Of a DNA stretch of 31,193 nt, positions 1 through 11,392 are shown one piece after another (within the stretch, counting starts at the first letter, position 1; each line of letters starts with the position of its first letter). The stretch is from an archaeon (GTDB lineage Archaea; Methanobacteriota_B; Thermococci; Methanofastidiosales; NM3): the NCBI GenBank assembly GCA_004212155.1, contig RXIG01000018.1, positions 1 through 31,193 of the forward strand. Reading direction: 5' to 3'. Position numbers and translations under genes: made by a program. Below the pieces are notes generated by a model. That model worked only from the letters and a program-made list of their open reading frames with translations. It ran no database searches and was not told the DNA's origin.

Positions 1-1164
1 CCAATCGATGACCCCCCCAACGCTTGCGTGGTAGAGGTACCCATCGGCCAGATAGAAATAGTACTCCATGGGCGTCCCGCCGGCGGCCCATGACGCACCG
101 CCCGTGATGGAGCCGCTCTTGGGACTTACCACGGCATTGACCGTGGTATCGTCGATATACTCGGTCATCGTGCCGCCGGTGTTGACGAGATGGAGGTCGA
201 ACGACTTCATGACGCTTGTCGGCGACGAGACGCTCGTGCTCTTCACGAGGGCTCCTGTCTCGAGATTCAACACGTACATCCTCGAGTTGGTGCAGACCAC
301 TGCCGTGCTTTCCCCCGCCGACTGGCTGTAGCCCAACACCGGCGTGGTCACGGCATGTGATGGAAGGGAGTATGTCCATATGGGCGATCCGGACGTGACA
401 TCGATGATCGCCACCTTATCGCCGGCGCAGTAGAGTTTGTTGTCAAAAAATATTGGGTCGACGGTCGGACATGATATGTCCCCGTAATGCCAGATGATCG
501 TGCCATCGGATGCATCGAGGCAGAAGACGCCTTCCGTCGTGTTCACATAGGCCCTGTTGTTGAAGACGACTGGCGTGTGGTAGTTGTCTCCCCCGACAGA
601 CTGCTGCCAGCGCACGACGCCGGTGTCCCTGTCGATGCACGAGAATATGCCCGTGTCGGCATAGATGTAGACATACCCATGCGCCACGGCAGGCTCTGAG
701 AGAGCACTGTCGGACCCGCCGAGGTCGTGGCTCCACAGGAGCGACGGCGCTGCATCGACATCGTTGGGCGTGGCGAAGGTGCGGTGGAACATGTATCCTG
801 ACATGATGTAGTCCTCCGTGGTGATCGGCTCAAGCGGCGGAGGTGATGTGGGTGCAGGAGTGGTAGGTGACGCTGTCGTTGGAGGGGCAGTTTGTGAAGG
901 TGACGCAGTTGGAGCTGCGGTCGTAGGGGGCGGTGTCGTGGCCTGGACAGGACATCCGTCGTTCTCAACAGGCCCGAACAGGAAAGGGCACTTATCATAC
1001 TTGTCAACGATCGTGTCACCGTCCGAGTCCTTTACCTCCGCCCCGTAGGAAACGGAGAGTGACCCGCCGGTAAACGATATGGCAAGGAGACCCTCGTTAT
1101 ATTGGTAAAACAAAAAAGCAGCTATTACGATTAATATCAATAAGAAAAACCATTTCTTACCCAT
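1..1164 (-). CDS. Membrane-anchored PQQ-like (BamB-type) beta-propeller protein, 3' end outside the window
   Basis: Missing from the ORF track because it has no stop in the window. Manual translation from ATG 1164 gives MGKKWFFLLILIVIAAFLFYQY (signal/TM), then DSDGDTIVDKYDKCP..GPVENDGCP, a Pro/Thr linker, and repeated blades (LLWSHDL, CIDRDTGVVRWQ, CLDASDGTIIWHY, IIDVTSGSPIWTY). The frame is open to base 1. Confidence 0.85.
   Translation of the reverse strand, partial: MGKKWFFLLILIVIAAFLFYQYNEGLLAISFTGGSLSVSYGAEVKDSDGDTIVDKYDKCPFLFGPVENDGCPVQATTPPPTTAAPTASPSQTAPPTTASPTTPAPTSPPPLEPITTEDYIMSGYMFHRTFATPNDVDAAPSLLWSHDLGGSDSALSEPAVAHGYVYIYADTGIFSCIDRDTGVVRWQQSVGGDNYHTPVVFNNRAYVNTTEGVFCLDASDGTIIWHYGDISCPTVDPIFFDNKLYCAGDKVAIIDVTSGSPIWTYSLPSHAVTTPVLGYSQSAGESTAVVCTNSRMYVLNLETGALVKSTSVSSPTSVMKSFDLHLVNTGGTMTEYIDDTTVNAVVSPKSGSITGGASWAAGGTPMEYYFYLADGYLYHASVGGVIDW
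835..942 (-). repeat. Pro/Thr-rich low-complexity linker
   Basis: Translates ATTPPPTTAAPTASPSQTAPPTTASPTTPAPTSPPP. Confidence 0.8.
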
Positions 1165-1338: not shown

Positions 1339-2753
1339 ATGAACAATAAAGCGATACTTCTACTATGCATGCTGCTTTTTACCTCGCTCATCACAGGATG
1401 TATCTCGTCCGATTCTGACACCGATACCACCCCGGCACCGACCACCTCAGCTCCAACGACGACGGCGCCTCCGGAAACGACGCAGGCCCCCACCACCACT
1501 CAGGCCCCGACGACAACAAGCCCTCCTACGACCTCGCCACCGGCGTTTCAGGGGATGGATCACGCCTGGCCCATGGCCAGACACGGTCCCTCCTCCGATG
1601 CCCAGACGGGTATGGACCTTCCCGCATCTCCATCGCTCGCGTGGTCGAACACCCTGCTTGCCGATACGCCTGTCGTGGAGTATGGCAACGTCTACGCGTT
1701 CGTGCGGGTCCTGGGCGACGAGCGCATATTCTCGCTGAGCTGTTTCGACCTCGAAGACGGTTCGCTCGTCTGGAGCACGCCCATAACGGGACGTCACAGA
1801 ACATGTCGTTTTACAGTGCCCCGGCCGTGGGCGACGGCAAGGTGCTCATCGTACGCGAGGGCACCGAAGCGGTCCACCTTACCGCTTACGATGCCATGAC
1901 GGGAGAAGGCGTCTGGAACTACGAGCTTTCCCCTACCTACAAGCACTATTTATCCCCCGTCATCGTCGATGACGCCGTTTATATGGCGCAAGGACCGTTT
2001 GAGAGAGATGGCGAGGTCGTGACGCACTGTACCGTCATACGCCTCGACCTCGCAACGGGGGAGGAAGTATGGACCCGGACGCTCGATGAGCCTGCGGCGT
2101 CCCATGCAGCGTATGCAAACGATATGCTCTTCGTGACAAGGATACACATGTATGATGGCAGGACCTACATCTCGGCGCTTGATGCCGATACGGGTAATGT
2201 GGTATGGTCGGAAAACATCGCCAGCGAGGCCTACGACATGTCGTGCCCGGTGATCATCGACGGCAACGTCTACGTCGCCGTTGGCGCCAACAACGCAGAG
2301 TACAGCTATATCACGCGCATCATCTGCTACGACGCCGAGACGGGCGACCATATCTGGGCCACGACCCAGGACGATAGCTACCACGTAGGATGGCATGTGT
2401 TTGCTGCCGGGGGAGACTTCATGATCCCCACCGTCATGAGCGAGGAGACGACGTTTACGGCCTACGATGCAGCGACAGGCGATGTCACGTGGAGCCATAC
2501 GTTTGGCGATGTCATCGAAGGGACCTCGAGCACCGATGATACGATAGTCTGCACGTGGACGTCGAATCCGTTCGCGGGTACCGAGGACTACGACATGCAC
2601 ATCGGGCTCTTCGACATCGCGACACGGCGGTTCGTGGAGACGTATACCGAGAGCATGCCAGGCTCGGACTACTGGGTCAGCTCATGGATGCCCGCGCTTG
2701 CCGGCGACTCGATCGTCGTCTGTCTCGGTGCTAAGCTCATGTGCTACAACTAG
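1339..2753 (+). pseudogene. Lipoprotein PQQ-like beta-propeller split by a 1-nt frameshift near 1788-1791 (pseudogene or assembly error)
   Basis: ORF 1339..1899 gives a lipobox signal (LITG-C), a Pro/Thr linker and the first blade (CFDLEDGSLVWST). ORF 1641..2753 continues the blades (AYDAMTGEGVWNY, LDLATGEEVWT, ALDADTGNVVWS, CYDAETGDHIWA). One extra G in GGG 1788-1790 fuses them into about 471 aa. SD GGAGG lies upstream. Confidence 0.85.
1426..1545 (+). repeat. Pro/Thr-rich tandem linker (about 6-aa units such as TTTQAP)
   Basis: TTPAPTTSAPTTTAPPETTQAPTTTQAPTTTSPPTTSPPA. Confidence 0.85.
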
Positions 2754-6881: not shown

Positions 6882-6923
6882 ACGATAACGGCGTCATTCG
6901 ACTATATTAACCATTCTTTCACG

Positions 6924-9900
6924 TCACGGACATGTCACGCCGAGGATGACAGCGACGTCCTGGGTGCTCCCGTATGATATGGTGAGATGGTCGTACGCAC
7001 TAAGCATGTCCTCGAGGCTCGTCACATGCACCATGTGCTCGCTTACCGTCGCAAGGTGTGAGATCGCCTCGTCGTCCCAGTAGGTGCCCATCGACTGCCG
7101 TATGCAGGCATAAAATGAGTTGATGTCGTCGAGCCGCTCGAGGAGCAGCGTCGAGACGAGCGTTGCAGAGATCGAAAGCTGTGGCGAATCGGCCTGCCCA
7201 GAGCTCACATCGGCTAGCGTTATCGCGTCCTGACCGGCCACTATGCAACTGAATGTCGCACTGCCTTGTGTCATGCCACGGTAGAGGTACGTCATGGTCG
7301 CACTGGAGCCTGCCGCGACATCGACTGACGCGGGCGTCGGCCCCTGGTGCTTTGTGATGTGTTCTGCCCCATCGACATCCCAGGTGGTAACGGATACTCC
7401 TGTAGCGGCGGTCTGACCCGTATTGGTCACCGTGACGACGACTGAGGCCGTCTCACCAGTGGATATGGATGTGTCGTCAAGGCTCACCTCCACCTCGAGA
7501 TGGGCGGGCGTTGGAACAGCTAGCGACGCTGTCGACGTGTTCGACGTCACCGGCCCGCCGGTGGAGCTGCCGGTCGCATGGCCTGAAAACGAGAGCGATC
7601 CGCCGTGCGGCCCCGGGTCGAGCTGAAGCGACCAGACAAACGCCGTGCTGCCCGACCCGGGGAGTGACGCAGGCACGTTGGACGGGCCTGCGGTCATCGT
7701 GAAGTCGGCCGTACCGGTCAACGTATAGGTGACGTGGGGCTGTACCGATGTGATCGTCGTCGTGCCGCCGTTTACCACATGGAGCGTTACTGTGCACGTG
7801 GTGCCGGTGCGTACGGCTGAAAGCGTCGATATGAGCCGTGCGAGGGGATTGACCATTACCGCCGACGTGGAACATGTCGTTGAGAGCGATGCCGATGTGG
7901 CGCTATCGACACCTTTGACGGTGGCATTGAAGCTTACCGAGCCGCCGGACGCGCCACAGCCGAGCTGCACCGTCCATGTGAACTGGGTCGACTGGCCCGG
8001 AAGCAGATTGGCAACAAACGGCGTCCCCGATATCACCGAGGCGGTGGCAGAGCCGCCCGTCACGAACGAGAGGGGTTGTGGCGTGACGCCCGTTGCCAGT
8101 GACCCGCCCGTGTTCACCACGTTGAGGCGCACCTGCACCTGCTGGCCGGACGTTACCGAGGGGACCGAGACCTGCATGGAACATGCAAGCGATGCGGGGG
8201 CCGCGGGTCCCCCGAGCGTGAGCGACGGGTCGCCATAGAGATTGAAGTCCATGATGTTTTGCCAGCCAAACGCCTTCCAGCCGTAGAGGTCGGTGAGGGC
8301 ATGCTTTGCCTCGTAGAGCGCCTCGCCTGCCGAGACGCCCATCGAGATGAGCCTGTCGACATACTCATGGCCGATGTCGGTGTTGGTGCGCGCCCCCTTC
8401 ATCGTCCACATGCCAGGCGCATAGTAGCTGATGCGCGATGCGCTCACCGTTGTCATCGCGCCGTTGAAGAGGGCCACGTAACCGATATTGTTTGCTACCT
8501 CGGGCGTGCCGTTGTTGCACGCGCACATGAAGACGAACGTGTCAGTGGACATCTGCATCGATGAGAAGTCGGCCGATGTGATGAACGCGGGATAGAGTAT
8601 CTCGTTGTGCTCGGGGATGCCGTCGCCGTCGTCGCTGTTCCATATCTTTCGCACGGCCCCCTGTGCGTAGCCATGACCCCACCAGAACACGACGCCATAG
8701 TCGTTGACCCACTGGCCGATGACATTTGCGCGCGTGAGCGGACCGTCATATTCATAGGCACTCGTGGGGACCGCAGAGAGGCCGCCTGTCTCGTACATGA
8801 CGAAGTTGGAAAATCCGTTGGGATTGGCAACCGTAGTGATCGCCTCGCGGGGCATGTCAAGCCCGTCGGTACGCGCACCGAACGTCGAGAGGTCCGAGCG
8901 CACCTCGCCGCCGAAGTTGGAGATGGCCGCGGGGATCATGATGCTGCTGTTCGCCCCGTTGTAGTTCATCGCACGCTGCAGCAGCGCGTTGAGCTCGGTG
9001 ATGGAGTTCATATAGACGGGAAGGCGGCCCACATAGAGTTCGGGCCCGAAGTCGACACCAACCGTCGTCTCGGTGCCGTCGGGGCCGAACTCGCCGAAGT
9101 ACCCGTCCCCGTCGACGTCCCACGAACCGGTGAGGTCGGCGTAGAAGTGGTCGGTGGGGATGCCCGCGGCGGACGTGCCCTGGGGCCAGCACATGAGCAT
9201 GGGCACGTCACCGAATGCGTCTCCAGTCGAGGGGTCATCAGGGTCGGGATTGCCAATGAGCAGCACGTAACGCAGCTGCTTGGGATGCTGATTGGCAATG
9301 AGCCAACTACGGATATTGATCGCTCGTTGCTGGCCACCAGCATATCCGTAGTCATCCTCAGTTATGACATAGACCGTAAAGCCCCTCGACTGGAGCCAGT
9401 TACGAAAGAGCGGAAGGACGGACGACGAGTTCTTGACGTAGTTCGTCGTGACGATGACGTATCCCTTGTATGACGAGGGCGGCGGCGCTCCCTTCACCTG
9501 GTAGACCATCGACTGCCAGCGCACCTCCACGGAAACGGAGAGGTGAAGCGTGAGGGAACGTTCGATGGGGTGGTAGCTCATGGCGGTAAAGACAAGGTGT
9601 ACCTCGGTGGTCTCACCCGATGTCGTGACGCGAGCGATGCGCACCGGTTCCTCTGGATAGCTGTATGGGGCGCCATAGACCGACGGGTCCTTGCCGTCGA
9701 TGAATCCCATCTCCACCGATTCCTCAACGGTCGTCGGCTGGGGAGCGGGACCGATCGAGAACGGGCCGCCGATGGGTACCGAGACGATGTCAGTGAAATG
9801 CAGGGAGACGTTTTGCGGGGAGACGATCCCAGGGAGCTCGACCACCCTCGTCTGTGTAGGAAGCAGGGGCGTGCCCATCTGTCCCGCAGTGAAAAATCCC

Positions 9901-10073
9901 TCCATCTCGATGGTGTCATACGGCGTGCCCTCGATGATCGAGAACTCGTTGGCACTAAAGAAGACATCGATGGATTCTGCCGCCTCGGACGGCGGCATGA
10001 AGGACAAGGGCACCAAAAGCAACAGGCCCACTAACAGGGGCCCGTACATGCATTTCAACAGACCCCTCCTCAT
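6924..10073 (-). CDS. Secreted C25-family (gingipain-like) cysteine peptidase with propeptide, three Ig/CARDB-like domains and a helical C-terminal domain
   Basis: Signal peptide; propeptide GQMGTPLLP; YVLLIG, PTDHFYADL, ELYVGRLP; catalytic His in WWGHG and Cys in MCACNNG; FNLYGDPSL. Confidence 0.88.
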   Translation of the reverse strand: MRRGLLKCMYGPLLVGLLLLVPLSFMPPSEAAESIDVFFSANEFSIIEGTPYDTIEMEGFFTAGQMGTPLLPTQTRVVELPGIVSPQNVSLHFTDIVSVPIGGPFSIGPAPQPTTVEESVEMGFIDGKDPSVYGAPYSYPEEPVRIARVTTSGETTEVHLVFTAMSYHPIERSLTLHLSVSVEVRWQSMVYQVKGAPPPSSYKGYVIVTTNYVKNSSSVLPLFRNWLQSRGFTVYVITEDDYGYAGGQQRAINIRSWLIANQHPKQLRYVLLIGNPDPDDPSTGDAFGDVPMLMCWPQGTSAAGIPTDHFYADLTGSWDVDGDGYFGEFGPDGTETTVGVDFGPELYVGRLPVYMNSITELNALLQRAMNYNGANSSIMIPAAISNFGGEVRSDLSTFGARTDGLDMPREAITTVANPNGFSNFVMYETGGLSAVPTSAYEYDGPLTRANVIGQWVNDYGVVFWWGHGYAQGAVRKIWNSDDGDGIPEHNEILYPAFITSADFSSMQMSTDTFVFMCACNNGTPEVANNIGYVALFNGAMTTVSASRISYYAPGMWTMKGARTNTDIGHEYVDRLISMGVSAGEALYEAKHALTDLYGWKAFGWQNIMDFNLYGDPSLTLGGPAAPASLACSMQVSVPSVTSGQQVQVRLNVVNTGGSLATGVTPQPLSFVTGGSATASVISGTPFVANLLPGQSTQFTWTVQLGCGASGGSVSFNATVKGVDSATSASLSTTCSTSAVMVNPLARLISTLSAVRTGTTCTVTLHVVNGGTTTITSVQPHVTYTLTGTADFTMTAGPSNVPASLPGSGSTAFVWSLQLDPGPHGGSLSFSGHATGSSTGGPVTSNTSTASLAVPTPAHLEVEVSLDDTSISTGETASVVVTVTNTGQTAATGVSVTTWDVDGAEHITKHQGPTPASVDVAAGSSATMTYLYRGMTQGSATFSCIVAGQDAITLADVSSGQADSPQLSISATLVSTLLLERLDDINSFYACIRQSMGTYWDDEAISHLATVSEHMVHVTSLEDMLSAYDHLTISYGSTQDVAVILGVTCP
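7160..8195 (-). repeat. Three tandem Ig/CARDB-like repeats (about 115 aa each) within the C25 protein
   Basis: Recurring V-x-L/V-x-V-x-N-x-G (VRLNVVNTGG, VTLHVVNGGT, VVVTVTNTGQ) followed by G-x-S-x-x-F/M-x-W/Y. Boundaries are approximate. Confidence 0.7.
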
Positions 10074-10239
10074 ACACTATACTATATGTACGCTTCTTAC
10101 ATTTATATTTATCTTTAAATCGAAGTAAACAAACGACTACTTGTGTTCTTTAAAATAACAACAGGAAAAAAATAGCGTATAATTGAAATAAAAATTAAAT
10201 CTATAACAAAGATGTAAAGAAGAACAATAATGGGAATAT

Positions 10240-10270
10240 AAAAAAATATATAGAAATGGATTCGTTTCTA
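10240..10270 (-). terminator. Hairpin plus T-tract terminator
   Basis: Minus strand TAGAAA-CGAATCCA-TTTCTA then TATATTTTTTT, 2 nt after the stop at 10273. Confidence 0.6.
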
Positions 10271-10272
10271 CC

Positions 10273-11088
10273 CTAACCGATGAGCGTAGAGAGCTCATCC
10301 ATGGCAGCTTGGGCGTGTGCGAGTTGACCCAACGCATACATCGCGTTCGTGAGACCTGATGCATGTTGCATATGTGTCTGTATTCGTTCGATGAGCATGA
10401 CCATCTCTTCAATAGGCTCTTGTGGGAGCTGCATTGATAGATCGTTCCAAACAATAAGGGCATTTTTAAGTTGCGTATGGGCTAGCGGCATCATCGATAC
10501 CGGCGACCAACGTATGGGGTCTGTAACGTCTACTCTAAATATCCATTTACTGTAAGAGTACATCCACTGTTGATTCAGGGCCGTTCGATACAAATAGCGT
10601 TTATTCTCTATGTCATAATCGTCCCAAAATCCAAGAGCGATGTGCAATGTATTACCAGCATCGAACACGTATGGATAGGTGAAGACGAGGAAGAACGGTC
10701 CATGTCCAAGCTCGACATCGGCTGGGATGGTCGTCCAATCAGCAGATGATGTATATAGCGAGGATGTGAACGAGAGCTGATCGGATATGGGCGTTCCAGG
10801 AATGAACATGGGGCCCCCTGGGTTTGGATTCACTACTGCAGAGTAGAACTGAAAGTGGAATTCATTTGACACATACGATATATACCTGACAGACACGGCC
10901 GTAGCCTTCCCCTGATGCGGCATTTCAAAGAGAACTGCCGCTTCCCACCACGCACCATGCTCCCCGTACGTGACAGCATAATTATACGTTCCATCATCGT
11001 ATTTGAGCGTCATCGCCGCCAGAGAAGAGGGCAAAGCAAGAAGGAGTATAAGAATAAAAGATAATAGGCATGTTCGAACTGTTCGCAT
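10273..11088 (-). CDS. Secreted hypothetical protein (LKYDDG beta domain plus helical C-terminal domain)
   Basis: Sec signal peptide ending SLA-A, an aromatic-rich beta-type domain and an amphipathic helical tail. Visibly lower GC than its neighbours. Confidence 0.8.
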   Translation of the reverse strand: MRTVRTCLLSFILILLLALPSSLAAMTLKYDDGTYNYAVTYGEHGAWWEAAVLFEMPHQGKATAVSVRYISYVSNEFHFQFYSAVVNPNPGGPMFIPGTPISDQLSFTSSLYTSSADWTTIPADVELGHGPFFLVFTYPYVFDAGNTLHIALGFWDDYDIENKRYLYRTALNQQWMYSYSKWIFRVDVTDPIRWSPVSMMPLAHTQLKNALIVWNDLSMQLPQEPIEEMVMLIERIQTHMQHASGLTNAMYALGQLAHAQAAMDELSTLIG

Positions 11089-11392
11089 GGATTATATCGC
11101 CGTTGACCCCATATAAATATTTCTTTTTAATAGGGGATGGTAATCATCGCTTTTTAAACTAAATATGTGTTAAATGGAACGAGAGGCTGTAGGCACCCCA
11201 TGGTATCCTCGCACGTTATGGCCATCCACCCTATGCGGCAACACGTTGAATGAAGCTGTAATCGTGGAGGCGTTCCCCTGTGCAACAGGTGCGACGACAC
11301 ATCAATAGCGTCATCACCAAAGTATGCAAAGATATATGTAATTGTAATCAGTTTGATATTCAAGGAGATAACAGATACGAGGGGATATTACT

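Follow-up and report, generated by a model that had tools for sequence, protein, structure and literature searches.

Two neighbouring genes of a methanogenic archaeon code for secreted proteins which resemble each other solely in their C-terminal ends. Are these ends copies of one domain, and what might such a domain do? The genes lie in a stretch of 31,193 nucleotides, here termed the window (GenBank assembly GCA_004212155.1, contig RXIG01000018.1, positions 1 to 31,193 of the forward strand), from an archaeon of the Methanofastidiosales. Members of this uncultured order are methyl-reducing methanogens. The source genome comprises 1.49 Mb in 28 contigs, is 89.8% complete and encodes McrA and MtaB. 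According to open reading frame (ORF) and translation, P0001 (6924..10073, minus strand, stop codon included) codes for a C25-family cysteine peptidase of 1049 amino acids which ends in ...VILGVTCP. P0002 (10273..11088, stop codon included) is located about 200 bases upstream on the same strand and codes for a secreted protein of 271 amino acids ending in ...LSTLIG. Both tails are copies of one domain of about 77 residues. P0002 has a canonical, cysteine-free three-helix copy (10276..10515, minus strand, residues 192-271), identified by paralogue matches, its place in a jackhmmer set and an AlphaFold2 model. The tail of the peptidase (6927..7166, minus strand, residues 970-1049) is a diverged three-helix copy of a cysteine type, identified by profile-profile alignment with hhalign, hidden Markov models (HMMs), AlphaFold2, BLASTP against a library protein and a pair of cysteines. 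The domain is real, modular and, as far as the searched libraries show, undescribed.

The two tails were initially compared as a pair. A sequence-only reading of the window had proposed an ungapped alignment of 72-residue tails with 10 identities and the shared motif E-x10-HMxH-x3-L-x5-A-x3-L-x14-G; this was reproduced exactly. It had also stated that the remainder of P0001 and P0002 is unrelated, with which a Pfam scan and BLASTP agree, and that neither tail has a hydrophobic transmembrane (TM) stretch or a basic end, as can be read from the translations. The BLOSUM62 sum of the alignment is +30, compared with -56.1 ± 16.9 for shuffles of one tail. None of 20,000 shuffles reached this score and 327 reached 10 identities; this test overstates significance because the register had been fixed beforehand and shuffled sequences lose their helical periodicity. 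BLASTP of P0001 against P0002 produced no tail-to-tail alignment (best E 6.0, elsewhere in the proteins), and phmmer with the C25 tail in its own genome found the tail itself only.

The tail of P0002 has numerous relatives. A search of its own genome yielded 10 further places, nine of them with E-values from 1.5e-27 to 1.2e-6. jackhmmer started from this tail converged on 13 of the 12,432 stop-to-stop ORFs of the genome, and in all 13 the domain is at the very end. Tail matches in the retrieved loci ended 0-7 residues from the end of the ORF in 71 of 71 cases (duplicates included; three were cut by the end of the locus). A library of 1.84 billion representative proteins contained 193 matches at E≤1e-3, 152 of these at E≤1e-10. 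Among the best 150 library matches 146 end within 10 residues of the C-terminus; the other four are two unrelated repeat proteins which mimic one motif and two proteins in which a chagasin I42 domain follows the tail. The library proteins P0075 and P0139, about 1000 amino acids long and of unrelated architecture, have 6-9 tandem repeats of about 40 residues with IANTIYALGELAKA, which mimics the turn between helices 2 and 3.

The proteins which carry the domain are diverse. A signal-peptide-like start was recognised by eye in 11 of the 14 copies of this genome, that of the C25 peptidase included; one copy is cut by a contig end and two have no such start. The N-terminal parts in this genome are right-handed beta-helices, PKD domains, an InhA-like MAM metalloprotease or nothing recognisable. 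In 117 representatives Pfam reported Beta_helix 33 times, NosD 16 times and Chlam_PMP 11 times, followed by PKD, DUF11, lectin, cadherin and five peptidase families. Across the family the cargo includes beta-helices, choice-of-anchor Q domains, PKD, Ig-like repeats, lectins and peptidases of the C25, C1, C11, C14, S8 and InhA-like types. The sequence-only reading had suggested an HMM search for this pattern, and the search did return many matches, nearly always C-terminal, on signal-peptide proteins with varied N-terminal domains.

Some copies in these genomes are peculiar. On contig 10 of the window's genome two ORFs are arranged head-to-head about 150 bases apart (G000:C10:33517-34386, minus strand, and 34539-35303, plus strand; L009, L010, L086). 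Each consists of a partial beta-helix, choice-of-anchor Q and the tail, and has no signal peptide. The inverted repeats between them reflect paralogue similarity only; the two may be truncated copies or pseudogenes. A signal-peptide protein at G000:C2:3191-4411 (L021) has a weak CWB2 match and a weak, non-terminal tail-like stretch (E 0.008-0.018), followed by a Gly/Asn/Pro-rich end. One in-frame TAG interrupts the tail ORF L027 (G002:C32:12524-15739), as is seen in three other places in relatives; in L027 it occupies the position of a Q in paralogues. Pyrrolysine was considered for the in-frame TAG and dropped, as neither a suppressor nor a Pyl tRNA is among the 33 tRNAs of the window's genome.

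Does the C25 tail belong to this family? A first HMM, built from 13 tails, gave the C25 ORF an E-value of 0.48, with 15.5 bits for the tail alone and the register exactly as in the sequence-only reading. An alignment of 47 tails was then used, drawn from the own genome (G000) and relatives and devoid of any C25 tail. The HMM built from it ranked the C25 ORF as the first non-member among the 12,432 ORFs (E 8.6e-4, 19.0 bits), and the C25 tail of the orthologue in G002 matched it with an E-value of 7.5e-7 (per genome). A non-significant profile-profile score had been named beforehand as evidence against a shared domain. The comparison by hhalign of three orthologous C25 tails (G000, G001, G002) with the 47 family tails was significant (probability 97.5%, E 6.3e-12); it covers 74 gapless columns up to the C-terminal cysteine, again in the register first noticed. 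A search of 31 related genomes with the C25 tail retrieved two orthologues, with E-values of 3e-46 and 1e-11, along with 15 weak matches, and 14 of these 15 fell on sites which the family profile matched independently. The library protein P0183 provides a bridge. It has 1177 amino acids, combines C25 and CARDB repeats in the same architecture as P0001 and ends in a canonical tail (E 2.4e-28). Its BLASTP alignment with P0001 extends over the entire Ig-like region and continues through the tail (segment E 2e-57). Lastly, the C25 tail (YACIRQ ... LGVTCP) has both cysteine positions which covary in the family, one at model column 28, the other within the C-terminal extension.

Several observations weigh against membership. 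The C25 tail lacks N60, A55, N54, P13 and P34 and has lost most of the signature polar residues; by HMMER alone it is a borderline case, with the E-values of 0.48 and 8.6e-4 given above. One might then argue that the C25 tail is no family member and that two amphipathic helical segments resemble each other by chance: the pair shares 14% identity, BLASTP and phmmer do not link it, the first family HMM remained non-significant and helical segments inflate profile scores. Against this stand the gapless hhalign match in register with the C-terminus, the top rank of the C25 ORF among the non-members, the score of the G002 orthologue, the alignment with P0183 through the tail and the presence of both covarying cysteines. 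Together these make a chance resemblance extremely improbable.

The AlphaFold2 models predict the fold with confidence for both tails. In P0002 helices span residues 13-36, 44-62 and 66-87 of 88 (pLDDT 89.7), in the C25 tail 9-33, 40-56 and 62-83 (pLDDT 87.5). As modelled, the domain is an up-down-up three-helix bundle. This agrees with the helical domain first suggested; the C25 model was built on the family alignment and is consequently not independent evidence for membership. The prediction of a homodimer of the P0002 tail scored 0.01. The most conserved positions are P13, L19, L33-P34, Q49, H51, N54, A55, N60, I62, Y63, A64, L68, A71 and L82, among them N60 (96%), A55 (92%), P13 (87%), Q49 (77%), N54 (74%), H51 (73%) and Y63 (69%). 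The conserved polar residues gather around the turn between helices 2 and 3.

The family exists in two forms. One is free of cysteines and ends with the last helix, as in P0002. The other, as in the C25 peptidase (Cys990, 7104-7106, and Cys1048, 6930-6932, minus strand), has a cysteine in helix 1 and a short LG-x-x-C extension, of which LGITCPL, LGCGC and LGCEC are further examples of endings. In 182 non-redundant tails the helix-1 cysteine (column 28) and the C-terminal cysteine occur together in 78 and are both missing in 100; four tails are discordant. Of another such pair, column 25 with either 74 or 75, both cysteines are present in 23 tails and neither in 151, while eight tails are discordant. 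Because the sequences are related they are not independent, and relatedness inflates any statistic on these counts. Helix 1 is parallel to helix 3 and the two terminate at one pole of the bundle; hence we infer that the covarying cysteines form a disulfide which would staple the C-terminus to helix 1. The C25 copy would keep fold and staple with most of the signature residues lost, and may bind more weakly or bind something else.

The domain appears to be restricted to one order. Of 133 genomes sampled from the phylum, this genome included, 25 had a match, all in the window's own order: 6/6 genomes in the window's family (f1), 6/6 in f2, 11/17 in f3, which is a single genus, and 1/4 in f4; f5 (0/2) and f6 (0/97) had none. 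The order itself contributed 35 of the sampled genomes. From lectin and Ig-like cargo and from the names of library records f3 is taken to be Methanofastidiosum. Relatives within the order are labelled Methanofastidiosia or Methanofastidiosum. Copy numbers differ: 13 tails are present here and 7-18 in f1 genomes, numbers are likewise high in f2, Methanofastidiosum-type genomes have 0-3, mostly 1-3, and f4 genomes next to none.

A match to an already characterised family had been listed as an outcome that would refute the idea; Pfam, NCBIfam and searches of the Protein Data Bank (PDB) by sequence or fold produced none. In the 117 representatives the tail is left uncovered by Pfam and NCBIfam alike, and so it is in the precomputed Pfam lists of the library proteins. 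When the 47 tails were compared with Pfam at E≤1, no covering family was among the 25 most-hit of 63 families. The nearest hint was DUF5667, an uncharacterised helical family with the lowest single E-value among the Pfam families matching more than one tail. However, only four of the 47 tails match it (best E 2.1e-4), one tail of this genome reaches 17.1 bits where the cut-off is 27, and the searched literature does not mention DUF5667. Foldseek against the PDB returned nothing at E≤1e-3. The highest Z in a wide fold search with VIA-align was 10.5 (4fzo), a value of the size common for helical bundles, and no fold relative is claimed. Among solved structures the best sequence match was E 0.019, to designed or TPR-like helices, and the ESM Atlas contained no usable match. 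The literature searched, including passages in PMC6393860 and PMC11878542, holds no description of the domain and little on the cell envelope of Methanofastidiosales.

How does the tail compare with known systems? Dockerins are similar in that they have about 70 residues, are helical and usually C-terminal, occur in many copies per genome on unrelated secreted proteins and dock non-covalently on a common scaffold. Yet a Dockerin match at E≤1 was absent from the complete Pfam lists of P0001 and P0002 and, among the 25 most-hit of 63 families, from the 47 tails, and a duplicated calcium-binding loop motif is not visible in the tail alignment. A cohesin-like partner was not found either, though no search aimed at it was made. 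The SLH and CWB2 domains of Gram-positive bacteria are likewise folded modules for non-covalent retention, common to many surface proteins, and SLH is largely helical; here the same Pfam comparison of the 47 tails had no SLH match among those 25 families. SLH and CWB2 domains occur as triplets and attach to wall polymers which archaea are not known to have. The C-terminal domain (CTD) of type IX secretion in Bacteroidota resembles the tail in being folded and about as large, and in being borne by varied proteins, C25 peptidases and choice-of-anchor proteins among them. It is, however, a beta-sandwich, whereas the tails are all-helical in the AlphaFold2 models. Also, a C25 signal peptidase does not co-occur with the tails (e.g. 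none was found in G003, which has 18), and the host is an archaeon in which no outer membrane is known.

PGF-CTERM and related archaeosortase signals are archaeal C-terminal tags on many surface proteins. They combine a short motif with a TM helix and a basic end, unlike the tails, and TIGR04126 (PGF-CTERM) had no match in the window's genome. No match to the archaeosortase family PF09721 turned up in this 89.8%-complete genome. The congener G002 has the family, as have 19 of 31 genomes of the order. Its absence here is no argument for a replacement. The idea that the tail replaces an archaeosortase was dropped because relatives with many tails have such genes.

What, then, is the function? 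We consider it an even chance that the domain is a folded, non-covalent module for retention or docking at the cell surface, as inferred from its position. After Sec export it would hold diverse cargo on one shared envelope component, for instance a scaffold, a glycan or a protein of the S-layer. The contact would be made by the conserved pole at the turn between helices 2 and 3 (Q-x-H-M-x-N-A ... N-P-I-Y-A-x-G-E-L-x-K-A). The sequence-only reading had left open anchoring or export. Position favours anchoring; export targeting is the less likely half since the proteins already carry Sec-type signal peptides.

Surface retention is favoured because the cargo is a typical repertoire of displayed or secreted proteins, because the tail follows choice-of-anchor Q and because the C-termini of C25 paralogues are interchangeable. 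Passages of a preprint (bioRxiv 10.1101/2023.03.06.531300) use 'choice-of-anchor' for domains of surface proteins which bear one of several alternative C-terminal anchors. In six of the 11 members scanned here the NCBIfam domain choice-of-anchor Q (NF041518; 36-47 bits, cut-off 25) directly precedes the tail and ends 4-9 residues before it. In the 117 representatives choice-of-anchor Q was present in 47, L in two and J in two. Among C25 paralogues of the order L101, L118 (E 1.5e-6 among 43 sequences) and, only weakly, L119 end in the tail, as do P0180 and P0183. Others end in a TM helix plus basic terminus (L098, L108, L109, L114) or in another repeat (L100, L120), and L096, L097 and L115 have no extra module. 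By a rough home-made heuristic the 229 signal-peptide-like ORFs of this genome comprise 10 with the tail, 20 with a C-terminal TM helix and basic end, 108 with an internal TM-like segment and 91 others.

A number of findings do not fit docking well and have to be set against it. The analysis revealed neither a binding partner or receptor nor an S-layer protein, and no cleavage or other processing of the tail. The sequence-only reading had suggested a look for co-occurring genes as candidate machinery; none emerged, neither from the neighbourhoods of this genome's members nor from the phyletic pattern of C25. The 13 tail genes share no neighbour and are scattered among housekeeping genes (Pfam, 111 surrounding ORFs). 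ABC ATPases adjoin three members; as common machinery they were discarded, belonging to different transporter types. Two library proteins (P0135, P0141) carry the domain internally with a chagasin-family I42 cysteine-peptidase inhibitor domain behind it; therefore, a free C-terminus is not obligatory. In this genome one member has nothing between signal peptide and domain, which is odd for a pure anchor, and 31 of 148 library matches are shorter than 130 amino acids and have room for little beyond signal peptide and domain, though some may be fragments. Archaeosortase-like genes occur in three of the six genomes of the window's family, congener included. The conservation of the pole could be structural because the cargo linker enters the bundle there, and the disulfide is deduced from covariation and helix geometry only.

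The main rivals of docking are a cleaved sorting signal and an assembly module. A sorting signal would be recognised after Sec export and cleaved, e.g. near the entry segment W-S-P-V-S-x-M-P-L, and the cargo would be passed to a covalent anchor, with the C25 peptidase acting in a sortase-like manner as PorU does. PorU belongs to family C25 and acts on the CTD in type IX secretion. The tail is indeed C-terminal, modular and placed behind choice-of-anchor domains, its entry segment is conserved (see P13 above), and the C25 peptidase is itself tailed and adjoins a tail protein in the window. However, PF01364 was found in 10 of 31 genomes in a pattern unlike that of the tail domain. Peptidase_C25 was not found in G003 with its 18 tails or in G006, nor in the four genomes of genus g8 or in 14 of f3, nine of which have the domain; conversely, three f4 genomes, where the domain is rare, have 7-12 matches. 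On this phyletic pattern the C25 peptidase was rejected as a PorU-like processing enzyme: a role of this kind is unsupported because the family fails to co-occur with the domain. Furthermore, conserved neighbouring machinery is missing, the tail is confidently predicted as a folded domain with the N-terminal motif modelled within helix 1, and the two internal copies do not suit a terminal signal. A cleaved sorting signal is therefore unlikely.

As an assembly module the bundles would bind each other or the small proteins which are little more than the domain, and would join cargo into surface complexes without an envelope receptor. This agrees with the short library matches and the member reduced to signal peptide and domain, with the many paralogues per genome and with a helix 3 richer in hydrophobic positions than a simple core needs. 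However, cysteine-free and cysteine forms show no fixed pairing across genomes, and with mostly 1-3 copies the Methanofastidiosum-type genomes leave little to assemble with. We regard it as improbable, a shade less so than cleavage. A cargo-independent accessory domain, which binds an external ligand or surface in adhesion or which stabilises or protects the exported protein without retaining it, is least probable of these three. In surface proteins of bacteria, small three-helix bundles frequently serve to bind ligands of host or matrix, chains of this kind such as 3rgu, 4k12 and 7s0r were among the fold matches (Z 7.5-8.5), and the conserved polar residues could form a ligand site. Yet such fold matches are within the noise range for helical bundles, and the strict C-terminal position beside choice-of-anchor domains together with the exchange with TM anchors fits retention better.

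The tail is a candidate tag for the display of proteins on Methanofastidiosales cells. To the known archaeal repertoire, in which TM-type signals prevail, the domain contributes a helical C-terminal module of non-membrane type. As it marks a defined set of 7-18 surface proteins per f1 genome it offers a simple sequence handle on the surface proteome, and as Pfam and NCBIfam leave the region blank it is usable as a new domain family for annotation. More tentatively, Methanofastidiosales might have a display system of their own, in which the three-helix tail, optionally stapled by a disulfide, would plug Sec-exported enzymes and adhesins into a dedicated envelope receptor and the small near-domain-only proteins would act as regulators or competitors. 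If true, such a system would be the archaeal equivalent of cohesin-dockerin or SLH display, unrelated in sequence to both.

The remaining features of the two genes are as follows. P0001 starts with a signal-peptide-like segment (9978..10073, minus strand, about residues 1-32: basic start, hydrophobic run, ...SEA/AES). As for P0002 it was judged by eye from the translation, without a predictor. The catalytic domain (8214..9461, minus strand, residues 205-620, PF01364) was found in the same place in a second, genome-level Pfam search; with 102.2 bits against a cut-off of 23 and model positions 1-374 of 374 covered, P0001 is a member of peptidase family C25. Between it and the tail are three Ig-like repeats (7194..8153, minus strand; CARDB, DUF11 and NPCBM_assoc, Pfam residues 641-719 and 858-960), and it is this region which aligns with the CARDB repeats of P0183. 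P0002 also has a signal-peptide-like start (11014..11088, minus strand, about residues 1-25: MRTVRTCLLSFILILLLALPSSLAA). It matched no Pfam or NCBIfam family at E≤1, and the NCBIfam scan detected no choice-of-anchor Q domain in either protein. Over its whole length P0002 is homologous to the first 280 residues of the library protein P0141 (E 2e-14). P0141 pairs the tail with an I42 inhibitor, and its homologue P0002 adjoins a cysteine peptidase gene in the window.

The surroundings of the pair are unremarkable, with genes for GNAT acetyltransferases, an ABC ATPase and a PAS histidine kinase as well as a trp operon. Two PQQ/BamB-like beta-propeller proteins are encoded at the start of the window (1-1164, minus strand, and 1641-2750, plus strand); a tail-HMM match was not reported there. 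With a G+C content of 47.7% for the P0002 gene and 38-54% for the other 12, the tail genes lie below the mean of the genome (55.2%); the C25 gene has 61.1%. One metatranscriptomic library contained contigs on the C25 gene (7322-8384 and 8717-9361) and at 10166-10407 and 10912-11150, so that the last 44 codons of P0002 are covered. This is a weak hint of transcription of the region of both genes because DNA can be present in such libraries. Near-identical copies of positions 6900-11150, whole or in part, are present in metagenome runs from oil fields, crude oil and sediments (20 of 24 listed rows, 16 studies); many of these runs may be the source of the assembly.

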